Shown here in pieces: positions 3,586-61,765 of a stretch of DNA of 64,000 nucleotides (the stretch's first letter is position 1; the number at the start of each line of letters is the position of its first letter). The DNA comes from a virus: positions 61,443 through 125,442 of IMG/VR virus record IMGVR_UViG_3300045988_115054. The stretch is one strand, 5' to 3'. The notes under the pieces were generated by a model. The model worked only from the letters and a program-made list of their open reading frames with translations, ran no database searches and was not told the origin of the DNA. Made by a program: the position numbers and the translations under genes.

Positions 3586-4524
3586 ATGATGATGAATAAG
3601 GCAAATGAAGCAAAAGCAAGAAATCTTGTAGAAGAATATCTTGTAAAAAATGATGATATTGAATCATTTGAAGAATTCATGGAAGAATTATACAAAGATC
3701 CCAACATGATGATCGATAATTTAGAATGGCGTGCTAACGGAGGAATCATGAGAGATGAAACACTTCCAGGTGGCTACAGTGATGCTTGCAAACAGATTTT
3801 AGAAATTGTTAGATATTCAAATATGAATATTAAAGAAATTGAATCATTAACATATGATGAAGTAAAAAACATAGCACTTGATCATATAGTAATCAAGGAC
3901 CATGATTGTTTCTTTGTTGATTTAGGAAAATACTTTGGATATTCAGTTCTTATTTTTAAGAACAAAAAACATATTTATTATGCTAATGATTATCAGTTGC
4001 ATCATCCAGCAACCAACATTCAAGAATTAAGAAAACGATACATAGAACGCTTAAATGAGTCACTATTTTTGGATAGTGACTTTTTGTTTCCAGTGTCAAC
4101 ATATGATGACTATCAACGTAAGAATAACTATCTTTTGAATTATTACTCACAAAGATATGATTCTTTGTCAATGTATTATTGCGGTTTTACACCTGATAAA
4201 AAGAAAGAAGCTGAGTTTAAAAAACTAAAGAAAGAATACAAATATTTTTCAACTGTATGCTTCTGTTACTTTAAAGATAAAAAAATAGTTGATACATTGG
4301 CAAAATATAAACAGATTTTAGAAGATTCATTTTCAGAAATGAAAAAAACAGATGATGAATTCAGAAAGATGATTCGAAAAGAACTTGCTAATCATGAATT
4401 TTGTATCATGCAAGATCCAACTGATACATTGGATAGTTTAGGATTAACCAGGGATGAATTATCTTATAATCAAGAAATGATCTTGCAAGAAGAAATGAAA
4501 AGAAATGTGGAAATGTATTACTAA
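3586..4524 (+). CDS. hypothetical protein
   Basis: This is a 312-aa ORF. An AGAAAGAAGGTA RBS motif upstream is shared with neighbouring genes. Confidence 0.55.
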   Translation: MMMNKANEAKARNLVEEYLVKNDDIESFEEFMEELYKDPNMMIDNLEWRANGGIMRDETLPGGYSDACKQILEIVRYSNMNIKEIESLTYDEVKNIALDHIVIKDHDCFFVDLGKYFGYSVLIFKNKKHIYYANDYQLHHPATNIQELRKRYIERLNESLFLDSDFLFPVSTYDDYQRKNNYLLNYYSQRYDSLSMYYCGFTPDKKKEAEFKKLKKEYKYFSTVCFCYFKDKKIVDTLAKYKQILEDSFSEMKKTDDEFRKMIRKELANHEFCIMQDPTDTLDSLGLTRDELSYNQEMILQEEMKRNVEMYY

Positions 4525-12732: not shown

Positions 12733-12768
12733 AATACAAATTTTTACATAAGAAAGGTGGAATTGATT

Positions 12769-14679: not shown

Positions 14680-15774
14680 ATGAACCTACAGTTAGTAAAA
14701 ACGGAAAATTTTAACGATATAGCGTGTGATTTTTATAGTGCTGAGGATCAGTTGTGGATGAGCAGACAACAGATTGGGCTTGCATTAGAATATAAAGATC
14801 CTAGAGTCGCCATTGCAAAAATTCACGATGCTAATAAAGAAAGACTAGATAGAGATTCAGTTGTTACCAAATTGGAAACAACTGATGGAAAATCTTATTC
14901 TAGTTATATCTATAATGAACGTGGCATTTATGAAATTTGTAGAAGAAGTAGACAACCCAAGGCTGATGCCTTTATGGATTGGGTATGGGATGTGATTGGA
15001 GCTTATCGTCATGGAAATTTAAGAACAGGAACTCCCGTAACAACAGTGGAGCAATTTCTTACAGAGCAGACAGAACTTATGAAGCAGATGGAAAGAAACA
15101 ACGAACGCCTGTATAAGGTTACTATCAATGGATTTAATCAGCTGGCAGATATTGTTAAAGAAATGAAAGCCGAGCGGAAAGAACTGTATAAGCAGATTTG
15201 TAAACCTACGAAAGATATTCCAGTAGTGGATACGGAAAGTGTTATCGCAGAATACAAACTTAATGAATGGAAGTCTAACGTCTATGGAGTCATTAATGAT
15301 ATTTTGAAAGAATCTGATGAGTTAGGAACTACCACGAGAGATATTCTTAGAGAAGCATATAACTATTTAACCAACACATATGGAATTGTGTGGGAACAGG
15401 ATCGGAAAGAATACAAAGAGAAATACAACATTAGTGAAAGAGGTAATGTACCAACGATTGATCTTTGCTATGACAAATATCCTGACCTACTGGTAAGTGT
15501 GCTGGAAAAACTTCTGCGACAGTTCCGCAAAGAAAACGCACAGCCTGATTGGGAAGAAATGAAGATCAAGATTACCAATTATGCTAATCATATTGGAAAT
15601 AGGTCTAAAGGTGGAACGTCTGTTTATCGTAAAATCTACACTAAGATGACAGAGAATGGGGTTAACTGGGATGAATATGCTCATGGGTTGTCTAAATCTC
15701 AGCTTATTAAAACTAATGCAACTTTGTACAACAGATTTTACGAAGCAGCGGTGGAAATTATTTCAGAAGAATAG
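14680..15774 (+). CDS. Bro-N domain phage antirepressor
   Basis: The N-terminus has the Bro-N pattern ...SRQQIGLALEY...TTDGKSYSSYIYNERGIYEICRRSRQPKADAFMDWVWDVIGAYRHG, i.e. GlY.l...Sr.p.A..F..WV...V.P..R. A GAAAGGAAG RBS is present. Confidence 0.65.
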   Translation: MNLQLVKTENFNDIACDFYSAEDQLWMSRQQIGLALEYKDPRVAIAKIHDANKERLDRDSVVTKLETTDGKSYSSYIYNERGIYEICRRSRQPKADAFMDWVWDVIGAYRHGNLRTGTPVTTVEQFLTEQTELMKQMERNNERLYKVTINGFNQLADIVKEMKAERKELYKQICKPTKDIPVVDTESVIAEYKLNEWKSNVYGVINDILKESDELGTTTRDILREAYNYLTNTYGIVWEQDRKEYKEKYNISERGNVPTIDLCYDKYPDLLVSVLEKLLRQFRKENAQPDWEEMKIKITNYANHIGNRSKGGTSVYRKIYTKMTENGVNWDEYAHGLSKSQLIKTNATLYNRFYEAAVEIISEE

Positions 15775-20427: not shown

Positions 20428-21378
20428 ATGGCAGCAACACAGTTTGAAGTTATTAAAACAGCAAACAATAATAACGCAGAAGAACCTGAAGCAAAGATCA
20501 AAAGACGTAAGGACGGAAATCCTAAATGGACTCGATCTAATAAACAAAAAGGCGTATCATCTTTAGTGTATCCAATTAAGAACAAAGAAAAATTTGCAGC
20601 CTTTAATGCATATTTTAGAGACCAGATTGATAAATCGTACACAGAGTACAAACGATATGTAGCTGCCAGAAACAATCTTTTGGTTACAGTTGGAAACAAT
20701 ACAGCATATCGTATCTCTGATATTGTTAGACTCAAATGGGGCGATTTATTGGAAGATAAGACTCGTAAGCAGGAAAAGAAAACAAAGAAATTTAGAACTG
20801 TATACTTTAACGACTTAGTAACCGAAGCAGTGGATATTTTCTTTGAAGCTGTTGCAGGAACTAAATATGATGTCAAGGTTGATGGAGAAGTTCCAATGGA
20901 TGATTATGTTTTTGGAACATGTAAGTCTGGATCAGGACACATGACTGAAGCAAATGCCTTGGATTTTGTTAAAAAAGGTGCTAAAGCAGTTGGAATTGAG
21001 GATAACATTGGTACACATACATTGCGAAAAAACTTTGTATACTGGACACTTGTTGATCATAAGGATGATCAGAATGTATTGTATACACTTATGAGATTAC
21101 TGAATCATAGTAGTCCTGCAATGACGTTTTTATATGCTACAATTACAGAAGAGGAAACACATGTATTGTTCGATGATATTGCTCAGACGTATAAGGATAT
21201 TATCAGCGGAGCATTTAACGGATTAAAGGAAAATGTTATTAATGTGAGTTATGATAGAGTTATGGAGATTATCAAGTGTGCTTATGAGACTGGCAAAGAT
21301 GATGCAGATCAAGATGATAGAGTACATGAGGACAATATGCAGGCACTAAAAGAGTTGCTGGAAGGAGTTATTTTATGA
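20428..21378 (+). CDS. tyrosine recombinase / integrase family protein
   Basis: All three catalytic-domain signatures are visible: TAYRISDIVRLKWGDL (Arg I), GTHTLRKNFVYW (HxxR) and LLNHSSPAMTFLYAT (nucleophile Tyr). An AGAGGAGAG RBS is present. Confidence 0.7.
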   Translation: MAATQFEVIKTANNNNAEEPEAKIKRRKDGNPKWTRSNKQKGVSSLVYPIKNKEKFAAFNAYFRDQIDKSYTEYKRYVAARNNLLVTVGNNTAYRISDIVRLKWGDLLEDKTRKQEKKTKKFRTVYFNDLVTEAVDIFFEAVAGTKYDVKVDGEVPMDDYVFGTCKSGSGHMTEANALDFVKKGAKAVGIEDNIGTHTLRKNFVYWTLVDHKDDQNVLYTLMRLLNHSSPAMTFLYATITEEETHVLFDDIAQTYKDIISGAFNGLKENVINVSYDRVMEIIKCAYETGKDDADQDDRVHEDNMQALKELLEGVIL

Positions 21379-22121
21379 TATTTGTAACAGGAGATACGCA
21401 TGGTGATTGGATGACTCGATTAAACAGTCGTTCTTTTCCTGAAGGCGTAGGGCTGACTAAGGATGATTATGTAATCATTTGTGGAGATTTTGGATTGTGG
21501 CATGACACAAAAGAAGAAAAATATAATCTGGAATGGTTAGACAGTAAGCTATTTACTACACTGTTTGTATGCGGAAACCATGAGAATTATGATCGGTTAT
21601 ATAAATATCCTGTAGAAGAATGGAATGGAGGAAAGGTTCATAAGATTCGTGATTCTATTTTTCATCTCATGCGAGGGCAGATATTTGATATTCAAGGCAA
21701 GAAATTCTTTACGTTTGGCGGAGCTAGTTCTCACGATGTTCAAGATGGAATTTTAGAGCAAGACGATCCAAGAATTAATGAATGGCATAGAGATTATGAT
21801 AAAATGTTTCGCATTAATCATGTGAGCTGGTGGAAAGAGGAGTTGCCTTCAGAAGAAGAAATGACAGAAGGCATGATGAATCTGAAGCAGAATGGATCGC
21901 AAGTGGATTATATAATTACACATAGTCCATACACATCTGCATTACGTCAAATTGATCAAGGATCAGGAGTGTATAAAACAGATATATTGACGGATTATTT
22001 GCAAGAGATTAAAGAATCTGTTGAATATAAAAAGTGGTTCTTTGGACATATGCATGTGAACCAGAACTTTCCAGGAGATAATGCGATTGCAATTTACGAA
22101 CAAATTATTAGGATTTTATAG
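21375..22121 (+). CDS. calcineurin-like metallophosphoesterase (Ser/Thr phosphatase-like)
   Basis: The GDTHGD, GDFGLW and GNHENY motifs are in canonical order. The start overlaps the recombinase stop (ATGA). Confidence 0.7.
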   Translation: MIFVTGDTHGDWMTRLNSRSFPEGVGLTKDDYVIICGDFGLWHDTKEEKYNLEWLDSKLFTTLFVCGNHENYDRLYKYPVEEWNGGKVHKIRDSIFHLMRGQIFDIQGKKFFTFGGASSHDVQDGILEQDDPRINEWHRDYDKMFRINHVSWWKEELPSEEEMTEGMMNLKQNGSQVDYIITHSPYTSALRQIDQGSGVYKTDILTDYLQEIKESVEYKKWFFGHMHVNQNFPGDNAIAIYEQIIRIL

Positions 22122-23063: not shown

Positions 23064-23077
23064 AAATGGAGAATATT

Positions 23078-24094
23078 ATGAATAATAAAGAATTGATACA
23101 AAATTATATAGATTCTCACGTATCAGAATCACGTCGCCCAACATGGAATTGGTTATTAGATTCCGATATTGCGGACGACAATGAATCTGGGTTAACGTAT
23201 GCACCAGGTACAATCCAAGAGGCTATATTATCAGATACTAGAGGTAAAAAAACCAAAAGTATGAATTCTATTAAAAAAAGATATGACCAGCTCGTTAAAC
23301 TATATACTTATGCATATGAACAAAATTACATTAAATATAATCCATTTATTAATGATAAATTTATAAACTTGCAATTAGCAGTTGATATATATTTTTCAAA
23401 TAGAGTTAATGTTAATTATGTTACACCAGATAAAATAAATGCGTTTATTTCGAATCTGATGTCGTGCAATGCATCAGCCGATACCAAATTGAATACTAGA
23501 TTTCACATTGTGAGTTTATATAATGGGATAAATGGAAAGGAGTTAAGAAATCTAAAATTCTCAGATATTAATCAAAATGATTTAACAATTCTTGGGAAGC
23601 CAGTCTCCAAAGATTTTATCGAGACATTGAATGAATATAAATTGAAAATGGGAGATACGAATATATATGATGATTTTGTATTAATACCACGAAAAAAATG
23701 TAATAATATAGAAGAATATCAAGCAGAGCAAAAGAGGATCTATAATAATGTGCAGTCTCAATTAGAATTAACTGGTAACACTTTATCTTATGAGAAATTG
23801 ACAACCATTGATGTTATTAATTCTGGTTTTATACAATATTTAAAATCTAAAATGGATATCAAGGCAATTGCAGATTTATATTATATTAAATCAAAAGAAG
23901 GAATCGCACGATCTATAATCGCACGTCAATTTAGTGATATTGCAATTGATTTTTATTATAATTATTATATATCATATAGAATAAAAAAGAAACAATTTAG
24001 TGATCGTCAAACGGTAATTGGTAAAAGTATTGGTTACCTATATAAGGACGAGGACTATAAGAATTATCGTGTACATCAAATAATGGCAGAATAA
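23078..24094 (+). CDS. tyrosine-recombinase-like protein with degenerate catalytic residues (DNA-binding?)
   Basis: TRFHIVSLYNGINGKELRNLKFSDIN resembles the recombinase region ytGlRisEl.aLkwsDid but lacks the Arg I residue. No HxxR or Tyr signature is seen. The gene is AT-rich. Confidence 0.35.
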   Translation: MNNKELIQNYIDSHVSESRRPTWNWLLDSDIADDNESGLTYAPGTIQEAILSDTRGKKTKSMNSIKKRYDQLVKLYTYAYEQNYIKYNPFINDKFINLQLAVDIYFSNRVNVNYVTPDKINAFISNLMSCNASADTKLNTRFHIVSLYNGINGKELRNLKFSDINQNDLTILGKPVSKDFIETLNEYKLKMGDTNIYDDFVLIPRKKCNNIEEYQAEQKRIYNNVQSQLELTGNTLSYEKLTTIDVINSGFIQYLKSKMDIKAIADLYYIKSKEGIARSIIARQFSDIAIDFYYNYYISYRIKKKQFSDRQTVIGKSIGYLYKDEDYKNYRVHQIMAE

Positions 24095-40176: not shown

Positions 40177-40344
40177 ATGAAAACAAGACAAGAACGTAAA
40201 CAGGAAATAAAACGATTCTTTGATCGGTTGAATCCAGAAGAATTGGACAAGCTGTTAGAAAGAAATGGAATCAATGACAAAGAGTCCAAAGAGGCTCTTG
40301 CATATAGAAATATTAAAGAAGAAATTGAGAAAGGAGAGATATAA
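40177..40344 (+). CDS. hypothetical small protein (55 aa)
   Basis: The ORF is in frame to a TAA that overlaps the next ATG (TAATG). The RBS is weak. Confidence 0.3.
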   Translation: MKTRQERKQEIKRFFDRLNPEELDKLLERNGINDKESKEALAYRNIKEEIEKGEI

Positions 40345-40649
40345 TGAACCACTTCTTATATATTGAATCACGGGAAGAAGAGAATACATCCATCGATTCT
40401 AAACGTGTTTTATTGAATGAAGAAAATTACAAACATATTATTTCATCATTAGATCATTATCCACCGACGGCAGACGAAGTTAAGAAAGCAATTTGTATTT
40501 TGACGGGACGATTGATCTACAGAAGCGTTTGGAATATGGAATCTGATATTGATAGTTTAAATATGAGTTTATCCCCGCCAAAAGAAATGACGGTTGCAGA
40601 AATCGAAAAAGAACTTGGTTACAAAGTAAAGATTGTAAAGGAGAAATAA
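40344..40649 (+). CDS. hypothetical protein
   Basis: This is a 101-aa ORF with a GAAAGGAGAGA RBS. Confidence 0.45.
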   Translation: MNHFLYIESREEENTSIDSKRVLLNEENYKHIISSLDHYPPTADEVKKAICILTGRLIYRSVWNMESDIDSLNMSLSPPKEMTVAEIEKELGYKVKIVKEK

Positions 40650-40952
40650 ATGGCAAAAAAGAAAAAGAATGGAATACCTTTTGAAATGGCAATGCAAGAT
40701 ATGAAAATAAATCCAAATAAAATATATCGACGTAGCGTTTGGAAGAAAACAAAAACGAGTTATGATTATGTGTTTATGATGTGTGAGGAAGAACAACAGG
40801 AGATTATTCCATTCGACCAAAGATATAAAATGAAACGGCTTTTATGTAGAGATCAAAATGGAGTTATAACACTAGGATGGTTACCTACCCAAGAAGATAT
40901 TCTTGCAAATGATTGGATTGAACACGGGTGGGATTTTGAAAGTAAGAGGTGA
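40650..40952 (+). CDS. DUF2829-like (Tad2-like) small protein, copy 1
   Basis: The C-terminal GWLPTQEDILANDWIE and N-terminal MAMQDMKINPNKIYRRSVW match the DUF2829 pattern F.eA..a...Gk...R..W ... W.ps..DllaeDW.i. Confidence 0.55.
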   Translation: MAKKKKNGIPFEMAMQDMKINPNKIYRRSVWKKTKTSYDYVFMMCEEEQQEIIPFDQRYKMKRLLCRDQNGVITLGWLPTQEDILANDWIEHGWDFESKR

Positions 40953-40959
40953 TGATTAA

Positions 40960-41247
40960 ATGAACTTTGTAGAAGCAATGGCTGCAATAAAAACACATAA
41001 AACAACTATAAAAAGACGCACATGGGGTGAACAATCATATCTAAAAATTTATTCGTCCGAACTAGCTAATGATTATTTTGAGTGTAATGGTATGGGAGAA
41101 TATAAAACAGATTCAATTATTTTCTTATTTGATGGAGAAAATGCAGAAGTTTGGGTTCCTATTGCAGAAGATATATGTGCAGATGATTGGGAAATATATG
41201 TTGAACCAATTAATGAAAGTAAGCAGACAAAGGAGAAAGAAGAATGA
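40960..41247 (+). CDS. DUF2829 family protein (Tad2-like anti-Thoeris candidate), copy 2
   Basis: MNFVEAMAAIKTHKTTIKRRTWGEQSY...VWVPIAEDICADDWEIYVEP is a close match to the DUF2829 N- and C-terminal signature blocks. A GGTGATGA RBS is present. Confidence 0.65.
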   Translation: MNFVEAMAAIKTHKTTIKRRTWGEQSYLKIYSSELANDYFECNGMGEYKTDSIIFLFDGENAEVWVPIAEDICADDWEIYVEPINESKQTKEKEE

Positions 41248-42191
41248 AATGTTTTTATCACGTTGATCAAGACGGAATTGTATCTGGTTTTTACGTTAGA
41301 AAAGCCTGTGAACAGCGAGGTTTAGCATTTGAACCAGAGGACTTCCGAAAAATTAATTACGGCATGAAATTCCCGTTTCATGACATTAAACAGGATGAAT
41401 TCGTATTTATCGTAGACTACAGCATTGAGCCAGAAGAGCTGTGGCAGTTGTTAAGTATTACAAAGAATGTGTTTTGGATCGATCATCACCAATCTACGAT
41501 TGAAGCGTATAAAGATTTTAAGTGCGATGTAAAAGGAATTCGGATCACTGGAGCAGGTATCTCAGGAGCGAATTTGACATGGTTGTACTTTAAATATATA
41601 TGTGACGAAGATTGGGAACAAATTGAGAGGACGGATGAGAAATATGTGACCTCTTTATTGCGAGAATTCTCTAAAAATACTCCTCAGTTGGCAAAATATA
41701 CAGCTCTGTGGGATACATTCTCGTGGAGTAAAAAATCAGAAGAATATGTTAAGGCGTTCCATTATGCATTTGAGTCATATGATTTTGATGTCATGAACTA
41801 TTTATTGGATAAGTTAAATGGAGATATGGGATTATGTGAAGCTGAGAGATTAACTGATTATATGATTGAAGATGGTTTAGGAATTAAGGATTATCTGTCT
41901 TCTACTGCAAAACAGTACCTTAGAGCATATGGTTTTGAAACCACCTTTGAAGGACATAAAGTCTATGCAATCAATCGAGCATTAATCAATTCTGATTTCT
42001 TCGAATCTATTGACGCTTCAAAATATGATATGTTCATTGGTTTTTCGTTCAATGGTAGTATGTGGGAATATCAGTTACGATCCGCAGAACAGGATAAAGT
42101 AAATGTGTATGAGCTTGCTGTGAAATATGGTGGTGGCGGTCATCCAAATGCAGCTGGGTTCAGATGTGATAAATATGTATTAGGAGTGTGA
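41244..42191 (+). CDS. DHH/DHHA1 phosphoesterase, NrnA-like (nanoRNase / pAp / cyclic-oligonucleotide phosphodiesterase family)
   Basis: The DHH motifs YHVDQDGIVSG (HxDxDG), IVDYS and WIDHHQST (DHH) are present. The DHHA1 motif YGGGGHPNAAGF (GGGH) is also present. At 315 aa the size matches NrnA. Confidence 0.7.
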   Translation: MKCFYHVDQDGIVSGFYVRKACEQRGLAFEPEDFRKINYGMKFPFHDIKQDEFVFIVDYSIEPEELWQLLSITKNVFWIDHHQSTIEAYKDFKCDVKGIRITGAGISGANLTWLYFKYICDEDWEQIERTDEKYVTSLLREFSKNTPQLAKYTALWDTFSWSKKSEEYVKAFHYAFESYDFDVMNYLLDKLNGDMGLCEAERLTDYMIEDGLGIKDYLSSTAKQYLRAYGFETTFEGHKVYAINRALINSDFFESIDASKYDMFIGFSFNGSMWEYQLRSAEQDKVNVYELAVKYGGGGHPNAAGFRCDKYVLGV

Positions 42192-42194
42192 TGT

Positions 42195-42995
42195 ATGTCA
42201 AGGAAAAATACAAGAGAATTTGAACTTGCTTTTAGTAAAAACAGAGATCCAGATTGGGAAGCCGATGTGGAAATTTATAGAAGAAGAAAGTTCGAAGTAG
42301 TGCGTGGTATTTGTCTGGGAGATGAGTTTGCTGAAATTGAGTCTTTAGAATACAAAAATTGTGACGAGTTAGATGAAATGTATTATCGTTTTAATTATAA
42401 TTTAAAAATGCTTATGAAGTCTTATTTGCATGAATATACAGATTATGTGCCAATCGAAACAATGCATATTACATCTCCTGCAATATTGTGTTGTGATGAA
42501 ATTGTATTAAAAAACGGTGAGAAAATTTCTATTGATAACATATGTATTGATAAATCAAATGGCAATGAAGTTTATAAATTATATTCTAATAGTACATATA
42601 CAGATGATGTATATTATGAATTTACTAAAGCATTAGTTTATGAATTGGCTAGTAAAGATGTTTGCAAGGCTATACATATAATGAAAGATATAATGGACAA
42701 AGCGTATATAAAAGCAAGAAATGAACGAAGCATACATCCTTTTATTAGCCACTTGTTTAACGACCCTCCAATTCCATGTATTAAAAATAAATATTCTATA
42801 CATGATTTAATGGGTACATTAAAATGCAGTGGTGATATTTATGAAGAAATAAAAAAAGAAGTCCCAAATGCTATAGATATGATTGTGCCTCATCCTGGAA
42901 GACATGCAGAGTATTATTTTGGGTTAGATTATACAGATGAAGTAGAGCAATTTATTAAAGAACAGGAGGCTAAGAAATGTGAAGAAACTAAATGA
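42195..42995 (+). CDS. hypothetical protein
   Basis: This is a 266-aa ORF with an AGGAGTGTGATGTATG RBS and start. Confidence 0.5.
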   Translation: MSRKNTREFELAFSKNRDPDWEADVEIYRRRKFEVVRGICLGDEFAEIESLEYKNCDELDEMYYRFNYNLKMLMKSYLHEYTDYVPIETMHITSPAILCCDEIVLKNGEKISIDNICIDKSNGNEVYKLYSNSTYTDDVYYEFTKALVYELASKDVCKAIHIMKDIMDKAYIKARNERSIHPFISHLFNDPPIPCIKNKYSIHDLMGTLKCSGDIYEEIKKEVPNAIDMIVPHPGRHAEYYFGLDYTDEVEQFIKEQEAKKCEETK

Positions 42996-43512
42996 TGAAC
43001 AGCGAAAGCTGATTGAAGATAATTATTCTTTGATTTGGCATTTACATGAAAAATATTTTACAAAGTTTACAGATTTTGATACATATATGGATCTTGGTCG
43101 TATGGCAATTTGTAAAGCAGCATTAAAATGGGACGAGTCTAAAGGAACTTTTGGTACATATCTCTTCTGGGTATTACGTTCAGAAGTGAATCAATATTAT
43201 ACAAAATGGCACAGACCAACAGAAAAAATGAATAGGAATGCTGAATCGTTAGATACGCCATTGGCAGGATACGAACCAGAAGATGATATTACAATCGGAA
43301 CAACACTGATGAGTAAAGATAATGTAGAGGATGAGGTGCTTACAAAGGTACATTTTCAAAATGAGTTTGATAAATTGGCACCGAGAAATAAAAAGATTAT
43401 CACGTTGAAGCAAAAAGGTTTAACACAAAGACAAATTGCAAGTCAGCTTGGAATCACTCATCAGTGGGTTAGTCAAAATATTGTACAGTTTAAGAAAGCA
43501 TTATGTGGATAA
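42979..43512 (+). CDS. phage sigma-70 family sigma factor
   Basis: Region 2-like LIWHLHEKY...LGRMAICKAALKWDESKGTFGTYLFWVLRSEV is present. The region 4 HTH reads LKQKGLTQRQIASQLGITHQWVSQNI. Confidence 0.65.
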   Translation: MKKLNDEQRKLIEDNYSLIWHLHEKYFTKFTDFDTYMDLGRMAICKAALKWDESKGTFGTYLFWVLRSEVNQYYTKWHRPTEKMNRNAESLDTPLAGYEPEDDITIGTTLMSKDNVEDEVLTKVHFQNEFDKLAPRNKKIITLKQKGLTQRQIASQLGITHQWVSQNIVQFKKALCG

Positions 43513-43525: not shown

Positions 43526-44359
43526 ATGACAATTGAAGAAGTAAAGGATTACATAAACTCGTCTACAGAGTATGACTTTTTGCGAGATTATCCGCACAAA
43601 ATCGCTTTTCTCACGTTAGGTGGAAGTTATGCCTACGGAACAAACACAGAGGATTCTGACATTGATTTACGTGGTGTTTTCCTTAGTGATAAAAGAGAGA
43701 TTTTGTTGAACAATAATCAAAACAATCTTGAGAAGACCGATGATCGTAAAGACGTTGATACTGTGCTACATTCGCATATTAAGATGATCAACATGCTTGC
43801 TAAGGGTAATCCTACGTTTTTAGAGTTGCTATACTTTGCACCAGATCGCTATTTGTATGTATCCGATATTGGTATGGAGTTGATCAAAAATAGAGATATG
43901 TTCTTATCTAAGAGAGTTTATCATGCATATAAAGGATATATATGTGATTGCCTGACTCGAACGAGTTTTAAGTATTATAAAAATAAAGATTCAGAGAAAG
44001 AAAAGCAAAAGGCGGAACGATACGCTAATAAATCAATGATGCACGCAGTTCGATTATTGTTACAGGGCATTGAATTATTGCATAACGGAACAATGTTAGG
44101 ATCTATGGATGACATAGGAAAAGATCTTGTAAAGATCAAAGAAGGATATAATAGTACGCATAAAACATATAGATTTGGCAAACACAATGAGCACACAGAA
44201 TATTTCCCAAATCAGTCATACGATGTTTTTATTGAAGGATTACTTTATCAATTTGATTATGATTATATGAATACTGATTTGCCAGACGAACCAGACTGGG
44301 ATCGTATCAATAACTTCTTGATGACAACAAATGAACGAATTGTGAGAGGAATGGTGTAA
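43526..44359 (+). CDS. Pol-beta-superfamily nucleotidyltransferase (PF10127/RlaP-like)
   Basis: IAFLTLGGSYAYGTNTEDSDIDLRGVFL is the hG[GS]-x-YG-x5-SDxDxxGV signature. An AGAGGTGAGATCATG RBS and start are present. Confidence 0.6.
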   Translation: MTIEEVKDYINSSTEYDFLRDYPHKIAFLTLGGSYAYGTNTEDSDIDLRGVFLSDKREILLNNNQNNLEKTDDRKDVDTVLHSHIKMINMLAKGNPTFLELLYFAPDRYLYVSDIGMELIKNRDMFLSKRVYHAYKGYICDCLTRTSFKYYKNKDSEKEKQKAERYANKSMMHAVRLLLQGIELLHNGTMLGSMDDIGKDLVKIKEGYNSTHKTYRFGKHNEHTEYFPNQSYDVFIEGLLYQFDYDYMNTDLPDEPDWDRINNFLMTTNERIVRGMV

Positions 44360-49324: not shown

Positions 49325-49867
49325 ATGTCGTTGAAATTAAATGACGAACAGAGAAAATTAGTGGAACAAAATCATAATTTGATTTACTCTGCTATGACAA
49401 AATGCGGTATCCGCAGACAAGATTTTGATGACTATTATGGATTCGCTGCCATTGGGTTGTGTAAGGCAGCAATTGATTATGATGAAACACGATCTAAATC
49501 ATTTTCGACATATGCATATTTATGTATACAAAATGAGATAATGGTATATAACAAATATAGATTTCGGCAGAGAAGAAAAGGTGATATGAATACTATTTCA
49601 TATAATCATATGTTAGATGATTGGGATGAAGACAAAAATGAAAATTCATTTCTTTTAAAGGATGAAGAAAATTTTGAAAAAAATATTATTTTCAAGTTGA
49701 ATTTTCAAGATAAATGTTACACACTAAATAATAAGGACAGAATGATTGTTGATTTAAAATCAAAAGGTTATACATATCAAGAAATCGCAAAAATGTTTGG
49801 TACATCATTTCAAGCGATACAACAAAAGATTAAAAGAATGCGATCAACAACATTTTCCAGATTATAA
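49325..49867 (+). CDS. phage sigma-70 family sigma factor (paralogue of 42979..43512)
   Basis: The N-terminus MSLKLNDEQRKLVEQNHNLIYSAM parallels KLNDEQRKLIEDNYSLIWHLH in the first sigma. The region 4-like block is DLKSKGYTYQEIAKMFGTSFQAIQQKI. Confidence 0.65.
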   Translation: MSLKLNDEQRKLVEQNHNLIYSAMTKCGIRRQDFDDYYGFAAIGLCKAAIDYDETRSKSFSTYAYLCIQNEIMVYNKYRFRQRRKGDMNTISYNHMLDDWDEDKNENSFLLKDEENFEKNIIFKLNFQDKCYTLNNKDRMIVDLKSKGYTYQEIAKMFGTSFQAIQQKIKRMRSTTFSRL

Positions 49868-54726: not shown

Positions 54727-55755
54727 ATGTTAGACAATATAAAAAAAGAACTATTGTCTAATCCTGAAAAAATAAGAGAAGTCTTGGAGCATTTTGATTA
54801 TTGTCATGTAGTGATCAGAAACACATATATGTCATTTGGTCGAGATGAGGTTTCTTCAAAGAAGTCCATAGTAATCAATTTGAAAAATAACAAAGCGTTG
54901 TTTGTGCATGATTATGCTAGAGCAATCCAAAAAGATTTGTTCTCATATATTATGCAGCAACGTGGAGTTGATTTTGCAGAGGTTTTAGGAGTTGTTAAAA
55001 ACATCTTAGGGATTACTGATTACTATGATTTCTTTGATAGACAAGGTATTTTTGGCGGATTTTATGAAAGGATTAGAAATCACAATGTAGTTCGAATCCA
55101 AACTTATGATGAATCTATATTAGATAAATACAATAATGTAGGGAATTTAAGATTCCTTAAAGATAATATATCACTTGAAGCACAAAGAATTTTTGGCATT
55201 CGGTTTGATACATCATCTCAAGGAATCGCAATTCCGATTAGAAATCAATTAGGACAATTAATTGGTGTAAAAGAAAGATTTAACTATGACGTTGAAGATG
55301 GTGAAATGAAATATTTCTACGATGTTCCGTGTCAAATGTCTCAAACATTATATGGATATTCTCAGAATTATCAGTATTTAGCCAACGGTGTTGTGTTGAT
55401 ATTTGAGGCAGAGAAATCTGTAATGCAGTGTTTTACATATGGAATTAGAAACTGTGTGGCACTTGGCAGTGGAACAATCAGCAAGAAACAGGTGCAATTA
55501 TTATTGGAATTAAATCCTAAAAAAGTAATATTTATGCATGACGTTGGCTATGATATTGAGAATATCATGAGAAATATTGACATGGTAAAAGGATACTCAA
55601 GATTTGCTGAGATTGAGTTAGGATACTGGAATTTTAATTTAAGTGAGTATTCCAATAAGGTATCACCGTCCGATATGGGAAAAGAAAAGTTAAATTACAT
55701 ATTAGAAAACGAAATAAAAATGATAGGGGATGAAGACGTCGAAGAAGAAATATAA
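54727..55755 (+). CDS. putative DNA primase (TOPRIM domain)
   Basis: VLIFEAEKSV (catalytic Glu) and KVIFMHDVGYDIE (acidic cluster) are spaced as in TOPRIM. The gene lies directly after the helicase. Confidence 0.45.
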   Translation: MLDNIKKELLSNPEKIREVLEHFDYCHVVIRNTYMSFGRDEVSSKKSIVINLKNNKALFVHDYARAIQKDLFSYIMQQRGVDFAEVLGVVKNILGITDYYDFFDRQGIFGGFYERIRNHNVVRIQTYDESILDKYNNVGNLRFLKDNISLEAQRIFGIRFDTSSQGIAIPIRNQLGQLIGVKERFNYDVEDGEMKYFYDVPCQMSQTLYGYSQNYQYLANGVVLIFEAEKSVMQCFTYGIRNCVALGSGTISKKQVQLLLELNPKKVIFMHDVGYDIENIMRNIDMVKGYSRFAEIELGYWNFNLSEYSNKVSPSDMGKEKLNYILENEIKMIGDEDVEEEI

Positions 55756-57349
55756 CATTTTGAACGATTGCAGAGGACTTTTTGAAGATGAGGTATTTGA
55801 AATTATCATGCAGGAGCGTGGTATTGATGATCCAGAACATTTTCTAAATCCTACGGAAGATGATTTACTTCCTCTTGATGACTTAAAAAATATTGATAAA
55901 GCATATAAGCTTTTGGTAGATGCAGTATACAAAGATAAACGTATTGCAGTACATTTTGATACAGATACTGACGGAATCACATCTGGTGCCATTATGACAC
56001 GATATTTAAAAAACATGACAGAAAATCCAGTAGATGTATACATTAACCGAGGCAAACAGCATGGATTAGTAAATCAGGACATTGCTAAGTTTTATGGGTA
56101 TGATTTACTGATTGTCGTTGATAGTTTAGATAAAGACGAGACTCAGTATAAGGATTTAAAAGAAACAGGAGTTGATGTGATTGTGTTAGACCACCATGCC
56201 ATCGATCCAGATGTTCCTTATGACAACTATTGCACATTAGTTTCTTCTCAGAGAGAATATGAAAATCCACAGCTATCTGGCGCAGGTGTTGTTTGGAAGT
56301 TTTGCAAGTATATTGATGAGCAGAATGGTACAGATTATGCAGATGATTTGGTCGATCTAGCAGGCGTTGGGCTGATTGCAGATATGATGGATATGAGAGT
56401 AATGGAGAATCGTTACATTGTATCCGAAGCTTTGAAAGAAATTAGAAATCCTGCGATTAAGAAGATTATTGGTGGATTTGAATTCAACAGCACAGCAGTT
56501 GCTTTTAGTATTGCACCGTTGGTTAATGCTGCAAACAGAATGGATCAGAATGAAATTGCTCTAAATGCTTTCCTTGAAGATGACAATAAAAAGTTACGAG
56601 GATATATTAAACAGTTAAAGCAATGCAAAGAAGACCAAAATGAAGAGGTCGCACAGCTGATGCCAATGATTGCAGAGCAGTGTGAGGCTCAGAGTGATAA
56701 AAAGATGATCACAACTTTTATTGACACTGATTATGGTATTTCTGGATTAATTGGGAACAAGTTACTTGAAAAATATCAGAAACCGATTCTTGTGCTAAAG
56801 AAAAATGAAGATACATACGCAGGATCTATGCGAGCTGTTGGTGTCAAAGACTTTAGACAGATGTGTAATGATAGTCAATTGGCTGAAGCGAATGGACATG
56901 AACTTGCCAGTGGTATTGAAATTCCTAGAAAGAACTTTACCGAGTTCACCTCTTATATAGAAGAAACTCTTCCAGATAAACCAGAAGATACAACAGTTGA
57001 TGTCGATATTATGCTTGATATTTCAGACATTACAAGAAAAATGGTTGACACGATTAAGAAAATTGATCGTATTTCTGGGCAGGGATTTAAGCCTGTAAGA
57101 GTTTATATTGAAGAGATTGACGACTATGACATTGGTCAGATGAGCAATTATAAACATCTTGTCCTGAAACCATGTAACAATGATAAATTGTGGATCATTA
57201 AATGGAACTATGATGGATCGTTTGAGGATATGGAAGACCATTCTATGATGAATGATGAGTTTTGTGCAGTTACTACACTTGATTGCGGATTCTTTGGAAG
57301 AAAGTTTGTGCTGAAAGCTGTGTGTGATTCACTTGAAGAGGTGGGATGA
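55730..57349 (+). CDS. recJ: RecJ-like DHH-family ssDNA exonuclease
   Basis: DHH motifs I (VHFDTDTDGITSG) and III (VIVLDHHAIDP) are present. The size and domain order resemble RecJ. Confidence 0.6.
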   Translation: MKTSKKKYNILNDCRGLFEDEVFEIIMQERGIDDPEHFLNPTEDDLLPLDDLKNIDKAYKLLVDAVYKDKRIAVHFDTDTDGITSGAIMTRYLKNMTENPVDVYINRGKQHGLVNQDIAKFYGYDLLIVVDSLDKDETQYKDLKETGVDVIVLDHHAIDPDVPYDNYCTLVSSQREYENPQLSGAGVVWKFCKYIDEQNGTDYADDLVDLAGVGLIADMMDMRVMENRYIVSEALKEIRNPAIKKIIGGFEFNSTAVAFSIAPLVNAANRMDQNEIALNAFLEDDNKKLRGYIKQLKQCKEDQNEEVAQLMPMIAEQCEAQSDKKMITTFIDTDYGISGLIGNKLLEKYQKPILVLKKNEDTYAGSMRAVGVKDFRQMCNDSQLAEANGHELASGIEIPRKNFTEFTSYIEETLPDKPEDTTVDVDIMLDISDITRKMVDTIKKIDRISGQGFKPVRVYIEEIDDYDIGQMSNYKHLVLKPCNNDKLWIIKWNYDGSFEDMEDHSMMNDEFCAVTTLDCGFFGRKFVLKAVCDSLEEVG

Positions 57350-58611
57350 TTATGGCAGGAAAAGAAGTATTTTGTTCAGTCTGCGGTTTATCATCTACTT
57401 TGGACGGACATTTTTGGAAAGAAAAGAAGTTGTGCAACAGACACAATATGCAGTTAGAAAAACATGGAAAACTGTTAGATAAAGATATAGTGATCCCTAA
57501 AAAGAGGCATAGATGGACTCCAGAAGAAGAAGTCAGATTAGAAGAGTTGTATAAACAAGGAGTTTCTTTTGAAAAAATTAGTAAACAAATGAATCTATCC
57601 GTGGCAGCCATAGCGGCTCGAAGTCGTCATTTGAATCTTGGCAATAAGTATATGAGGTCTAATAATCCTAATTTTAAAGCCACATATCAGGATTATGATT
57701 GGTGTTATGAAAGATATGTTGTTAAGGGAATGACTCATCAAGAAATGGCAGATGAATGTGGTGCCTCGTTAAGAGTTATTCAGAAATGGTGTTCTGAAGT
57801 TCATAAATTAAATTGTTGGACTTTCAAAAACAATAAGACATTAACCGATAAACAGTATCAAATTATTTTATTTGGCACATTAGGAGATGGGCATATTGAT
57901 AAGAGAGAGACGCAACCTTTGTATATTGAATGTCATTCTATAGCAGAAAAGGATTACGTGTTTTGGAAATATGAAGAATTAAAAGATTTATGTAACTCTG
58001 AGCCAAAGTATTATGAAGGTGGCTATAAAGATTTTGGTTCTGGTACAAAGTATTGGTGTAAACCACATTACAGATTTGAGACAAGAATTATTAATCAATT
58101 GAAGGACATTCGAGACATGCCAAGAATCAATAAGATTTGGCAATTGAATGAATTTGGATTATCTCTTCATTGCTTAGACGATGGATGCAGAGGTAAATCA
58201 GCGTGGGAATTATGTTTGGCAGAATATACTCAGCAAGAAATTGATTTATATATCAAGCTGTGTAAAAAGAGATTTGGGTTATATGCTAAACAGCAGACAG
58301 ATAAAAGATATATAAGATTTGATTCAGATTCAAGTAGAATTATTGATCAAATTATTTTAAACAATATTCCTAATTCGCTTGACATTATCAAAAAGAAGAT
58401 ATTAGAAAACGATAAAATTTCTAAAAAAGTAAGATACATTTATGTTGTCATGCAGAACGGAGAACAGATTGGTTTATCTACATATTGTAGATCTCATGGT
58501 ATTCCATATGAAAAGACAAGAAAATATGTCATTGAGCACAATATCTCTCGAATTCAAGAAGCTGATCTACTAAATAGATTAAAAGCTGGAGGATTAATGA
58601 ATGCGGTATAA
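57346..58611 (+). CDS. free-standing homing endonuclease (LAGLIDADG-like, two motifs) with an N-terminal Zn-finger/HTH region
   Basis: LFGTLGDGHIDKRE and LHCLDDGCRGKS are LAGLIDADG-like. The N-terminus reads CSVCG...CNRHNMQLEKHG. The gene overlaps both flanking genes by a few nucleotides. Confidence 0.45.
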   Translation: MIMAGKEVFCSVCGLSSTLDGHFWKEKKLCNRHNMQLEKHGKLLDKDIVIPKKRHRWTPEEEVRLEELYKQGVSFEKISKQMNLSVAAIAARSRHLNLGNKYMRSNNPNFKATYQDYDWCYERYVVKGMTHQEMADECGASLRVIQKWCSEVHKLNCWTFKNNKTLTDKQYQIILFGTLGDGHIDKRETQPLYIECHSIAEKDYVFWKYEELKDLCNSEPKYYEGGYKDFGSGTKYWCKPHYRFETRIINQLKDIRDMPRINKIWQLNEFGLSLHCLDDGCRGKSAWELCLAEYTQQEIDLYIKLCKKRFGLYAKQQTDKRYIRFDSDSSRIIDQIILNNIPNSLDIIKKKILENDKISKKVRYIYVVMQNGEQIGLSTYCRSHGIPYEKTRKYVIEHNISRIQEADLLNRLKAGGLMNAV

Positions 58612-61600
58612 CAATTATCATAAACACGATCATGTGTCAAATATCTTTACCCCAGATACAAATACTAAACAAGAAGAGTATATTCTTAAAGCATTGGAGT
58701 ATGGGCATACAAGTTATTATAGTACGAATCATGGCAGTTTTGGAGATATCTTTGAAGCCAGAACATTGTGTAATAAGTATGGATTGCGTTGTATTGCAGG
58801 CATCGAAGGATATATTGTCCCAAATGCGTCGCAAAAAGACAAAAGGAATTATCATATTATAGTGATCCCTAAAACCGATGAAGCCAGAAAGAAGATGAAT
58901 TATGTATCAAGTATGGCAAACATCAAAGGGTTTTATTATAAACCAAGATTTTTTTTATCTGATTTATTAAAACTTGATCCCAATGATGTTTATATTACAA
59001 CTGCATGTGTAGCAGGATTATTACGAGATGAGGATTCAATTAATGAGATTTTTATGCCTCTATATAAGCATTTTAAAGAAAATGTAATGCTAGAAGTTCA
59101 GACTCATGATGATCCGTTGCAAATTGAAATCAATAAAAAGGCAATATATCTGTCTGATCAATATGGGTTAAGCTTAATTGCTGCAAATGATTCACACTAT
59201 ATTGACGAATCAGGCAAAGAAGAACGTCTGGAATTATTGCGAGGTAAACATATCAATTACGGCAGTGAAGACGATTTTATATTAGATTATCCTACTGCTG
59301 AAACAATGATTGAAAGATTCAAAAAACAAGGCGTTTTGACAGATAGACAAATCTCAGATGCATTAAATAACACATTGTTGTTTGATGAATGTGAAGAAAT
59401 ACAACTCGATTATTCAATTAAAATGCCTACGATTTATCCTAACTTGACTCCCGAACAAAGAGTGGGTCTTCTAAAAAAAGAAGTAAATAAACGGTTCAAG
59501 GAGATTCGAAAAGAAGAACATATTGAAGGAGAAGAGTTTAAAAAATATAAAGATGGAATTCGATATGAGATGAAAATCATCGAGGATACTAACGATGAAA
59601 TACATACAGCGGACTATTTTTTGTTTAATGAGAAAAATGTAGATCTTGCAGTTAATAAATATGGTGGTGTATTGACTCGTGGTGGAAGAGGTAGTTGCGG
59701 TTCCTTCTATATAAATAGGATATTGGGAATGACACAACTAGATAGATTTAAAATTAATCTTCCGCTTTTCCCAGACAGATTTGCTTCTACTGCCAGATTG
59801 CTAGAGAATCGCTCATTGCCCGATATAGATTTTAACGTAAAATCCCAAGAACCATTTATTAAAGCTTCAAGGGAATTGCTTGGTGAACACGGGTGTTATC
59901 CAATGTATGCACCAGGAACCATGCAAATATCTGAAGCATTTAGAAATGTATGTAGATCTAAGAATATGTCATTTGACGAATTTAATCATGTGGCAAAAAA
60001 TCTGGAAGAATATCAAGATGATCCGAAATGGAAACCGATTATCGAAGAGGCAAATCGCTATGTTGGAACAATTATATCTGGTTCTGTACATCCTTGCGCC
60101 CATATTTTAAGCAACACTAATTTGCTTTATGAGTACGGTGTTACTCGTTTAGGTGAAAACGTATGTGTTTTAATTACTTCATCTGAAGCAGATGAATATA
60201 AGGTACTTAAAAACGATTATCTTATCGTCACGGTCTGGAAGCTTATTGACGAAACATTTAAAGAGATTGGAATTCCGATTATTAAGGCAAATGAATTATT
60301 GGATAAAATTAAAGATGATCAGAGAATATGGGATTTATTTAAAAATGGTATTACATGTACTTTAAATCAGGTTGATAGCGACAATGGATGTAGACAAGCA
60401 AAACAGTATGGTATTTCGTCATTTGAGGATGGCGCCCATATTGCAGCAGCCATAAGACCGTCTTTTGATTCATGGAGAGAACAGTTTTTAGACAGAAAAC
60501 CATATACAACTGGTTCAGATCAGCTTGACGATGTTTTGAAAGATACTCATGGATACATTTTATTTCAAGAATCATTAATGCAATATTTTGACTGGTTGGG
60601 GGTTAGTCCAGCTGAATCTATTGGTTTAATTAAGAAAATTTCCAAGAAAAAAATTAAACAATCGGATTTTGATAATCTTGAGGAAAGAATCAAAAAGCAA
60701 TGGATTATTAATACTGGCTCAGAAGAAATGTTTTCCGAAACATGGCATTTGGTACAAAGTTGTATGAGTTACGGATTTTGTTCAGCCCATGCAGCAGCAA
60801 CCTCATTGGACATGTGTTATGGAGCATATCTAAAGGTCAATTATCCTTACGAATACTACAGTGTTTGCTTCAATAATTACGTTGGAGACAAAGAACGAAC
60901 GAATAAACTAACAAATGAGTTAGAGTATTTTGGTATTAAATTAAGCGACATTAAGTTTAGACACTCTAACTCAAAATATTCTTATGATAAAGAGGGTCAT
61001 ACAATATTCAAAGGCATGTCGTCCATTAAATTTGTTGGAGATAATGTTGGAGAAGAACTGTATGCATTACGAGATAATCAATATGATTCTTTTATAGATT
61101 TGTTGCAAGACATATCTAATACATCTGTCAATTCTAAACAGTTAGATATTTTAATTAAATTAGATTTCTTTTCTGAATTTGGAGACATTAATTATCTACT
61201 TAAACAGGTTGAGTGCTATGACAAATTCTATGGCAGAAAACAGTTTACAATTTCGAAGCTCCAAAAAGAAGGCGAAGATATTGAATTAATCAAAAAGTAT
61301 TGTCAGAAACAGACAGAAAAAACATTGAAAGAATTTGATTATATTGGATTTTTGAAAGATATGACATCAAGTATGGCATATTCACTAGTTTCAATAACTG
61401 AACGGATGGATTATCAGAAAGAATATATTGGTTACATCAGTTACATTAACCCTAACATTGGCAAGCGATATTACTATGTCAAAGATTTATCTGTAACAAA
61501 ATCCATCGTCAACATTCAGTTATATGAAATTTATTCTGGAAAAACACAGAAAGTAAAAATGTGGACAACCCAATATAAGAAGAATCCATTCGATGAAGGA

Positions 61601-61765
61601 GATATTCTATATCTGAAATCAGTTGAGAAGAAACATAAAAAAGAACCAACTGGGGAGATCAATCCAAAAACAGGAAAGAAAATCTACAAAGATGTGCCAG
61701 ATAAATTTGAGTTTTGGCTTAAGAATTTCACTATTAAAAATGACGTAGAGGAGGAATTAGTATAA
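58601..61765 (+). CDS. dnaE: DNA polymerase III alpha subunit (DnaE-type) with an N-terminal PHP domain
   Basis: The PHP motifs HKHDHVSNIFTPD and HTSYYSTNHGS are present. The palm motif GRGSCGSFYINRILGMT matches DnaE GRGSAAGSLVAYxLGIT. The protein is 1054 aa. Confidence 0.85.
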   Translation: MRYNNYHKHDHVSNIFTPDTNTKQEEYILKALEYGHTSYYSTNHGSFGDIFEARTLCNKYGLRCIAGIEGYIVPNASQKDKRNYHIIVIPKTDEARKKMNYVSSMANIKGFYYKPRFFLSDLLKLDPNDVYITTACVAGLLRDEDSINEIFMPLYKHFKENVMLEVQTHDDPLQIEINKKAIYLSDQYGLSLIAANDSHYIDESGKEERLELLRGKHINYGSEDDFILDYPTAETMIERFKKQGVLTDRQISDALNNTLLFDECEEIQLDYSIKMPTIYPNLTPEQRVGLLKKEVNKRFKEIRKEEHIEGEEFKKYKDGIRYEMKIIEDTNDEIHTADYFLFNEKNVDLAVNKYGGVLTRGGRGSCGSFYINRILGMTQLDRFKINLPLFPDRFASTARLLENRSLPDIDFNVKSQEPFIKASRELLGEHGCYPMYAPGTMQISEAFRNVCRSKNMSFDEFNHVAKNLEEYQDDPKWKPIIEEANRYVGTIISGSVHPCAHILSNTNLLYEYGVTRLGENVCVLITSSEADEYKVLKNDYLIVTVWKLIDETFKEIGIPIIKANELLDKIKDDQRIWDLFKNGITCTLNQVDSDNGCRQAKQYGISSFEDGAHIAAAIRPSFDSWREQFLDRKPYTTGSDQLDDVLKDTHGYILFQESLMQYFDWLGVSPAESIGLIKKISKKKIKQSDFDNLEERIKKQWIINTGSEEMFSETWHLVQSCMSYGFCSAHAAATSLDMCYGAYLKVNYPYEYYSVCFNNYVGDKERTNKLTNELEYFGIKLSDIKFRHSNSKYSYDKEGHTIFKGMSSIKFVGDNVGEELYALRDNQYDSFIDLLQDISNTSVNSKQLDILIKLDFFSEFGDINYLLKQVECYDKFYGRKQFTISKLQKEGEDIELIKKYCQKQTEKTLKEFDYIGFLKDMTSSMAYSLVSITERMDYQKEYIGYISYINPNIGKRYYYVKDLSVTKSIVNIQLYEIYSGKTQKVKMWTTQYKKNPFDEGDILYLKSVEKKHKKEPTGEINPKTGKKIYKDVPDKFEFWLKNFTIKNDVEEELV

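Follow-up and report, generated by a model that had tools for sequence, protein, structure and literature searches.

A recently mobile pair of Tad2-like genes next to a fixed DHH/DHHA1 phosphoesterase gene in a lineage of gut phages

Overall organization of the locus

The window analysed here, a stretch of 64 kb (IMG/VR record IMGVR_UViG_3300045988_115054, positions 61,443 to 125,442) out of a genome of roughly 160 kb, contains two adjacent genes for Tad2-like proteins, Tad2a and Tad2b, which are followed by a gene for a predicted DHH/DHHA1 phosphoesterase. Within the phage lineage to which the window belongs the DHH gene is fixed, whereas the Tad2 pair is an accessory cassette that has been mobile recently. 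The interpretation that we tentatively favour is that of an accessory Tad2 sponge cassette in a gene-swap slot, beside a functionally separate, fixed, NrnA-like phosphoesterase that is likely to be engaged in RNA-end processing. A first-pass annotation of the same DNA had instead combined the three genes into one anti-defence operon, in which the phosphoesterase is the functional partner of the sponges. The three genes are:

40650..40952, + strand: Tad2a, Tad2-like (DUF2829) protein of 100 residues; PF11195, 34.7 bits (cutoff 25)
40960..41247, + strand: Tad2b, Tad2-like (DUF2829) protein of 95 residues; PF11195, 45.9 bits (cutoff 25)
41244..42191, + strand: standalone DHH/DHHA1 phosphoesterase of 315 residues, i.e. 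NrnA-sized; overlaps Tad2b by 4 nucleotides (ATGA)

The positions of these open reading frames (ORFs), the assignment of the two small proteins to DUF2829 and the 4-nucleotide overlap had all been given correctly in the first-pass annotation.

Cassette polymorphism and the gene-swap slot

The occurrence of the Tad2 pair within the lineage was followed in 52 loci anchored on the DHH gene (DHH 80–98% identical) and, with the nearby gene for an RlaP-family nucleotidyltransferase as an independent anchor, in 51 loci. Of the DHH-anchored loci, 27 out of 52 contain the pair, as do 26 of the 51 RlaP-anchored loci; DHH is present in all 51 of the latter. In 14 of the 27 Tad2-positive loci the pair adjoins DHH, and in the other 13 a gene for a 137-residue Nuc_deoxyri_tr2-like protein lies in between. 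The slot in the 25 loci that lack the pair contains nothing, the 137-residue gene alone, or a gene for a 209-residue protein. Eight DHH protein alleles occur in multiple genomes, and four of them are found at 100% identity both in genomes with the pair and in genomes without it. In addition, comparison of the window with its closest relative (L006) gives an identity of 98% for DHH versus 77% for Tad2a and 72% for Tad2b, which indicates that the evolutionary regimes of the two elements differ. All Tad2b homologs found (16 clusters, 63–96% identity) belong to this lineage and this slot.

The alternative slot cassettes lie upstream of DHH in relatives of the window (L007:7581-7994, L016:7603-8001 and L011:7321-7950). 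The 137-residue protein matches PF15891 with 28 bits, just below the cutoff, and the 209-residue protein displays a nucleotidyltransferase-like GGxxR...DxD motif and has no Pfam match.

The borders of the slot in the window, and the RlaP gene that served as second anchor, are:

40344..40649, + strand: orf101, conserved 101-residue gene forming the left border of the slot, present in nearly all close-lineage loci
40637..40646, + strand: Shine-Dalgarno-like 10-bp sequence AAAGGAGAAA, left member of a direct repeat; lies at the 3' end of orf101
41229..41238, + strand: the 10-bp sequence AAAGGAGAAA again, right member of the direct repeat; lies at the 3' end of Tad2b, just 5' of the DHH start
43526..44359, + strand: RlaP-family nucleotidyltransferase, an enzyme adding nucleoside monophosphates (NMPs) to RNA 3' ends; PF10127, E 5e-24; ATG start confirmed

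No Pfam match was obtained for orf101. Between positions 40301 and 41300 the repeat AAAGGAGAAA occurs in two copies only, which flank the 592-bp Tad2 cassette. A simulated deletion between the two copies yields the orf101–DHH junction of the Tad2-less genomes L009 and L010, except for single-nucleotide differences. The junction, in which AAGGAGAAAGAAGA is directly followed by ATGAAA, recurs at every gene that adjoins DHH or the 137-residue cassette gene. The 592-bp Tad2a–Tad2b cassette is probably gained or lost at the 5' border of DHH by recombination at these short Shine-Dalgarno-containing repeats.

In Tad2-less genomes with an empty slot, orf101 overlaps DHH by the identical 4 nucleotides, and the overlap is thus a property of the 5' junction of DHH. 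The genes are co-directional and overlapping, but both overlap and operon status are generic to the slot. Tad2a, Tad2b and DHH lie inside a single tightly packed, co-directional block (38–46 kb of the window). A scan for promoters and terminators produced no signal above that of shuffled sequences, and no + strand terminator was detected across the block, so that operon boundaries cannot be defined. Since the whole block is packed, co-directional and terminator-free, the operon-like arrangement carries little weight as evidence for a link between Tad2 and DHH.

In the anti-defence operon as originally proposed, the sponges would capture the signal and the DHH protein would destroy cyclic oligonucleotides or their linear products. 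The 4-nucleotide overlap, the common orientation and the lack of a terminator between the genes agree with this proposal, and cellular DHH/DHHA1 enzymes are known to hydrolyse c-di-AMP, pApA and cA4 (literature in PMC7824862). The pair was, moreover, never seen without a nearby DHH gene, but this is trivial, as DHH is fixed in the sole lineage that has this Tad2 subfamily. The points against the proposal are the retention of DHH in all lineage loci, as compared to about half for the pair, the occurrence of identical DHH alleles either way, the unchanged overlap with orf101 and the intervening gene in 13 of the 27 Tad2-positive loci. A partnership is not seen across lineages either: Tad2 is linked to DHH in 1 of 33 independent DHH lineages, with one distant match in 113 diverged loci and none in 39 genome loci. 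We consider it very unlikely that sponges and DHH protein form a single anti-signalling system.

The two Tad2-like proteins

Both small proteins resemble the known Tad2 proteins (SPO1 Gp34.65, PDB entry 8SME; HgmTad2/AcrIIA7, PDB entry 8KBI; SptTad2) in their length of ~90–100 residues, in passing the Pfam cutoff, and in the conservation of the N-terminal helix motif (MNF.EA...K), the first-loop tryptophan and, at the C-terminus, the motif W-x-P-x-x-x-D-x-x-A-x-D-W. Tad2b is closest to the branch of SPO1 Tad2, with an end-to-end alignment (8SME, E 6e-5, residues 1–79), and an 88%-identical homolog of Tad2b carries the NCBI name 'Thoeris anti-defense Tad2 family protein'. Tad2a is closest to the HgmTad2/AcrIIA7 branch (8KBI, E 9e-4), with an alignment covering the C-terminal 33 residues only. 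NCBIfam gave no match for Tad2a or Tad2b. The AlphaFold2 monomer model of Tad2b is poor, with a predicted local distance difference test score (pLDDT) of 42, and its order of secondary-structure elements fits the Tad2 fold, in which an N-terminal helix is combined with a five-stranded sheet.

The part common to Tad2a and Tad2b is limited to the C-terminal W-x-P-x-x-E-D-x-x-A-x-D-W segment. With just these 13 alignable residues a recent tandem duplication was rejected, and the sequences identify the proteins as two distinct Tad2 subfamily members. They are always inherited together, unlike the known Tad2 proteins, and no description of such a pair of divergent members was found. Their strict co-inheritance suggests that Tad2a and Tad2b form a hetero-oligomer or have complementary specificities.

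In HgmTad2 the residues W21/N22 and S90/T92/D93 contact gcADPR (PMC10680739). At the equivalent sites the alignments to 8KBI and 8SME reveal W-K and T-Q-E-D in Tad2a, and W-G and I-A-E-D in Tad2b, such that the contacts of HgmTad2 are only partly retained. The Trp and Asp residues are kept in both proteins, the Asn is changed to Lys (Tad2a) or Gly (Tad2b), the Ser to Thr (Tad2a) or Ile (Tad2b), and the Thr to Glu in both. The range of the Tad2 family, as established by experiment, comprises CBASS, Pycsar and Thoeris I/II/IV signals and AcrIIA7 (PMC12393519). By homology, Tad2a and Tad2b are likely to be sponges for nucleotide immune signals, and it is reasonable to regard the pair as an anti-defence cassette.

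The 315-residue DHH/DHHA1 protein

The 315-residue protein matches phrog_4771 ('DHH phosphoesterase') with E 3.5e-36, although it stays below the Pfam cutoffs for both DHH (20.6 vs 28.1 bits) and DHHA1 (20.9 vs 25.9 bits); the Pfam assignment expected in the first-pass annotation was thus obtained for PF11195 and not for these two families. Its AlphaFold2 model (pLDDT 91) shows a two-lobe DHH plus DHHA1 fold, for which Foldseek returns a probability of 1.0 with NrnA/Pde2, DhhP, TM1595, Rv2837c, PggH, the GdpP core and archaeal RecJ. The motifs of the family are present as H6, D8, D10, D58, D80-H81-H82, D157, R279 and GGGGH296-300. In 25 homologs with identities down to 40%, each of these residues is either invariant or conserved to at least 90%. 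Sequence and model clearly predict a catalytically intact DHH/DHHA1 phosphoesterase, and the earlier description as a complete enzyme of NrnA size is borne out.

The protein has the two-lobe fold, the length of ~315 residues, DHH motifs I–IV and the DHHA1 GGGH motif in common with NrnA/Pde2, DhhP, TM1595, Rv2837c (CnpB) and PggH, and, like the standalone DHH/DHHA1 phosphodiesterases, it has no extra sensor or OB domains. It differs from the NrnA-type enzymes in that it is phage-borne, has only 11–16% identity to its NrnA-type structural matches, lies below the Pfam cutoffs and contains a larger helical region between the lobes (residues ~108–229). A search against NCBIfam gave no NrnA-type match; the only match was RecJ_archaeal, at 21 bits against a cutoff of 360.

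The possibility that the 315-residue protein is the phage RecJ was rejected. A separate, bona fide RecJ of 539 residues, the second DHH/DHHA1 protein of the window, is encoded at 55730-57349 (+ strand; TIGR00644, E 6e-93) in a replication module, and the 315-residue protein is therefore not taken to be the recombination exonuclease. The module around RecJ includes AAA_24, DnaB and primase genes. A LAGLIDADG homing-endonuclease-like gene lies between RecJ and PolIII-alpha and overlaps both (ORFs 57346-58611 and 58601-61765).

Two DHH alleles contain in-frame TAA codons, replacing Q126 and E277 in L045 (8001-8954) and Y142 in L222 (3962-4915). Frameshifting or recoding was rejected as an explanation of these split ORFs, which result from plain TAA nonsense substitutions in otherwise intact genes. 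The alleles are either natural knock-outs or assembly/sequencing variants; given these rare nonsense alleles, DHH is probably dispensable. In cellular genomes the family is rare, with 39 loci in 185,579 species. Members with 33–35% identity are found on Methanobacterium/Methanobacteriaceae chromosomes (L237–L245), far from the Clostridia phage context.

Gene neighbourhoods of more distant DHH homologs

Neighbourhood statistics were derived from samples of IMG/VR and GTDB, consisting of at most 80 loci per query of ~550 matches. Beyond the lineage, dereplication of 84 loci (identity below 85%) left 33 DHH lineages, for which neighbours within 3.5 kb were scored; the BLAST-based clustering of these neighbours into families misses remote homologs. 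The recurrent neighbours are:

RlaP: 8/33 DHH lineages
CCA-adding enzyme with HD domain: 6/33 DHH lineages, in 5 of which it directly adjoins DHH upstream
Metallophosphoesterases of two families: 4/33 and 3/33 DHH lineages
Thg1: 3/33 DHH lineages
dCMP deaminase: 3/33 DHH lineages
Sigma factor: 3/33 DHH lineages
Tad3-like proteins: 3/33 DHH lineages
Any RNA-end nucleotidyltransferase (RlaP, CCA-adding enzyme or Thg1): 11/33 DHH lineages

The single lineage in which Tad2 is linked to DHH is that of the window itself. A hidden Markov model of Tad2 gave one weak match among the 113 diverged DHH loci (in L070, at a distance of 5.8 kb and confirmed as PF11195) and none among the 39 DHH loci of isolate genomes and metagenome-assembled genomes (MAGs), and when 150 proteins encoded near DHH in 16 diverged loci were compared with Pfam (E≤0.001), at most one was a PF11195 member.

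RlaP is the most consistently conserved neighbour. Its linkage to DHH spans DHH identities from 98% down to 37% and includes four genome loci. An operon RlaP–X–CCA–DHH, in which X is a protein of 317 residues (X317), recurs in IMG/VR phages and is also present in Lachnospiraceae bacterium A4 and Eubacterium plexicaudatum ASF492. RlaP–CCA–DHH is found in a Eubacteriales MAG, and in a Christensenella MAG RlaP directly adjoins DHH. The 317-residue protein is conserved between RlaP and the CCA-adding enzyme (L005:2715-3665, L224:2678-3634, L226:2678-3634) and has no Pfam match; it is a candidate for a missing component of an RNA-repair module, such as a kinase, ligase or phosphatase.

Further contexts were observed in individual groups of relatives. 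In a group with 45% identity the sigma factor gene directly adjoins DHH, and genes for NUDIX and cytidylyltransferase-like (NMNAT-like) proteins lie upstream (L002:416-1006 and 3480-4046); the latter two could contribute to a pathway for NAD+ reconstitution. In a relative with 54% identity an IS605 OrfB/TnpB gene (Cas12f-like TNB domain) is inserted ~1.6 kb upstream of DHH (L001:2467-3375).

A possible role of the DHH protein in RNA-end processing

NrnA-type DHH enzymes hydrolyse the 3'-phosphate of pAp as well as short RNAs, and the products of ribotoxins carry a 2',3'-cyclic phosphate or a 3'-phosphate. Because of these end groups, a phosphoesterase has to act on such products before RlaP or the CCA-adding enzyme, which require a 3'-OH. 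At the 3'-OH of damaged RNA or tRNA, RlaP attaches one or two NMPs (PMC12776372). Iyer et al. 2021 (PMC7824862) have grouped RlaP, the CCA-adding enzyme and Thg1 as RNA-end repair nucleotidyltransferases of jumbo phages, of which the latter two rebuild tRNA ends. An RNA-end role of the DHH protein is favoured because its conserved partners, i.e., RlaP, the CCA-adding enzyme with HD domain and Thg1, act on RNA 3' or 5' ends. The DHH protein would then process RNA ends or short RNA fragments in an RNA/tRNA repair module of the phage, by removing a 3'-phosphate or 2',3'-cyclic phosphate or by trimming damaged terminal nucleotides, after which RlaP and the CCA-adding enzyme could rebuild the RNA end. 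It may also clear the resulting nanoRNA or pAp.

Several observations weigh against this interpretation. An RNA-end nucleotidyltransferase is found within 3.5 kb in just a third of the independent DHH lineages, and 14 of the 33 lineages show none of the eight recurrent neighbour families named above. In L079 and L083 a gene for a Tad3-domain protein (PF25185, E ~1e-34) follows DHH immediately on its 3' side, and several other contigs carry one within ~1.5–2.5 kb of DHH. In the 64-kb window of this ~160-kb genome, none of the annotated ORFs was identified as an RNA ligase. Sequence and fold do not separate a nanoRNase/pAp-phosphatase from a cyclic-nucleotide phosphodiesterase, and the substrate of the DHH protein is putative. 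The same applies to the sponge role of Tad2a and Tad2b, in both of which the key gcADPR contacts N22 and T92 of HgmTad2 are replaced. Finally, AAAGGAGAAA is purine-rich and Shine-Dalgarno-like, and translational reasons alone could explain its recurrence.

The Tad3-domain proteins have 230–265 residues, consist of an N-terminal Tad3 domain and an uncharacterised C-terminal half, and occur in several unrelated phage lineages (L079:2766-3524, L083:7284-7976, L080:4511-5299; also L188, L158, L182 and L204). Tad3 is a ThsB-binding inhibitor of Thoeris (PMC13402655). None of the Tad3-linked DHH lineages has RNA-end enzymes nearby, and the contexts of the DHH family are therefore heterogeneous. The presence of Tad3 proteins beside DHH also indicates that DHH is located in regions with an accumulation of counter-defence genes, and the DHH protein may have a role in counter-signalling.

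Such a role, as a phosphodiesterase that degrades immune signals independently of Tad2, has been predicted for the DHH enzymes of jumbo phages (Iyer et al. 2021, PMC7824862). It is compatible with the intact active site and the standalone NrnA/DhhP-like architecture of the protein, with its location in accessory regions rich in counter-defence genes (Tad2, Tad3, NUDIX/cytidylyltransferase-like neighbours) and with its probable dispensability, as nonsense alleles exist. However, DHH is fixed and 98% identical where the Tad2 genes are 72–77% identical, which is unlike typical arms-race genes, and its tightly conserved operon partners are RNA-end enzymes rather than anti-defence genes. A literature search for an experimentally studied phage DHH anti-defence enzyme found none, nor was any experimental characterisation of the phage DHH family found. 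On this evidence a signal-degrading function is quite improbable.

A further alternative is that the DHH protein is a generic nanoRNase or pAp phosphatase, encoded by an auxiliary metabolic gene and recycling short RNA into NMPs for the nucleotide supply of the phage. The best structural matches are indeed dinucleotide and nanoRNA hydrolases of the NrnA/Pde2/TM1595 type, and genes of nucleotide metabolism (nucleoside 2-deoxyribosyltransferases, dCMP deaminase, thymidylate synthase) are recurrent neighbours. The low identity to NrnA-type enzymes and the lack of an NCBIfam NrnA match are less in line with this function, and the CCA-adding gene that adjoins DHH in 5 of 33 lineages, together with the RlaP linkage across wide divergence, suggests a more specific role. 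We regard a purely generic function as unlikely.

A bolder form of the RNA-end reading, possible but somewhat unlikely, is that RlaP-(X317)-CCA/HD-DHH constitutes a ligase-independent pathway for RNA 3'-end repair in phages and prophages of Clostridia and that, separately, Tad2a and Tad2b form an obligate hetero-oligomeric sponge or a dual-specificity pair. In such a pathway the DHH protein would heal or trim tRNA 3' ends that toxins of the host have damaged by attacking tRNA and that carry a 3'-phosphate, a cyclic phosphate, a pyrophosphate or extra nucleotides. The ends would then be rebuilt by RlaP and the CCA-adding enzyme. No RNA ligase (RtcB or 5'-P ligase) appears in the Pfam lists for the neighbour proteins of the diverged DHH loci.

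Phage lineage and other features of the window

The window is phage-like and has a low GC content (~33%), and nearly all of its genes are on the + strand. A megablast search of the region against GenBank phages gave no match, and the phage thus has no annotated close relative there. Its PolIII-alpha is ~42% identical to those of the large Clostridioides/Clostridium phages phiCD211 and c-st and of Geobacillus E3, and related IMG/VR contigs have lengths of ~130–170 kb. An assembly of Anaerostipes sp. carries a near-identical gene block, for which reason the host of this lineage of ~160-kb gut phages is probably a member of the Lachnospiraceae.

Two genes separate DHH from RlaP:

42195..42995, + strand: orf266, variable accessory gene directly 3' of DHH, overlapping the sigma-factor gene
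42979..43512, + strand: phage sigma factor with GTG start; Sigma70 r2/r4 matches; phrog_351, E 8e-27

No family match was obtained for orf266 in Pfam, PHROGs or NCBIfam. The gene is present in 44 of the 51 RlaP-anchored loci, with allele identities from 31% to 98%, and marks a second site beside DHH with hypervariable accessory content. In genomes that are nearly identical otherwise, the RlaP gene itself (43526-44359 in the window; loci L086–L135) falls into three allele classes with identities of ~98%, ~78% and ~55%. The identities of the sigma factor, nucleoside 2-deoxyribosyltransferase, orf194 and PcfJ genes are discordant in a similar way, and recombination has made the block a mosaic of modules of gene size.

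Elsewhere in the window two tyrosine-integrase-like genes flank a metallo-phosphoesterase gene (phrog_1649), and a weakly radical-SAM-like protein and an SPFH/flotillin protein are encoded (these features together at 20428-21378, 21375-22121, 23066-24094, 29905-30867 and 31286-32746). The window further contains a second sigma-like gene at ~49325-49867 and two genes for Bro-N proteins (12757-14121 and 14680-15774). A scan for tRNA genes gave none in the window, so that a tRNA-centred conflict has no support from tRNA genes.

Relation to known systems and implications

The enzyme families that surround DHH genes of the type found in the window are identical to those of the jumbo-phage toolkit (RlaP, CCA-adding enzyme and Thg1), and phage DHH phosphodiesterases are listed together with these enzymes as conflict-related adaptations (PMC7824862). 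In the part of that paper available to us, however, the DHH enzymes are placed under the countering of nucleotide signalling and no link to RlaP or the CCA-adding enzyme is made, whereas in the present loci the operon RlaP-(X317)-CCA-DHH connects them. No RNA ligase is seen beside these operons. If the DHH protein did degrade signals, hydrolysis of immune nucleotides would be a strategy in common with Acb1, Apyc1 and AcrIII-1; unlike these proteins, the 315-residue protein matches DHH/DHHA1 families only, and no conserved linkage of DHH to anti-defence genes was found. The 'phage phosphatases' that counter NAD+ depletion by RES were considered as DHH enzymes and rejected, as they are Macro-domain proteins.

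The Tad2 family, the DHH family (as a PHROG) and the predicted counter-signalling role of phage DHH enzymes are already known. The first-pass annotation had regarded a DHH-family anti-signalling nuclease with Tad2-like sponges as partners as unprecedented, which is partly wrong; a counter-signalling function of phage DHH enzymes was already predicted in 2021 (PMC7824862), and it is an experimental report of one that was not found. No prior description was found of the operon linkage of DHH with RlaP and the CCA-adding enzyme, of the swap slot with its flanking repeats or of the obligate Tad2 pair.

The present locus illustrates that, in a densely packed block of phage genes, adjacency and a 4-nucleotide overlap do not demonstrate a functional partnership, which guards against over-reading of such arrangements. 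It also provides a defined slot for gene swapping, bounded by short repeats, and the presence or absence of the Tad2 cassette in near-identical gut phages constitutes a natural experiment on sponge function in Lachnospiraceae hosts. The phosphoesterase step that would give RlaP a free 3'-OH is an acknowledged gap of the RNA-repair pathway, and the conserved neighbourhoods described here offer a testable link between an uncharacterised family of phage DHH phosphoesterases and the RNA-end repair enzymes RlaP and CCA-adding enzyme.

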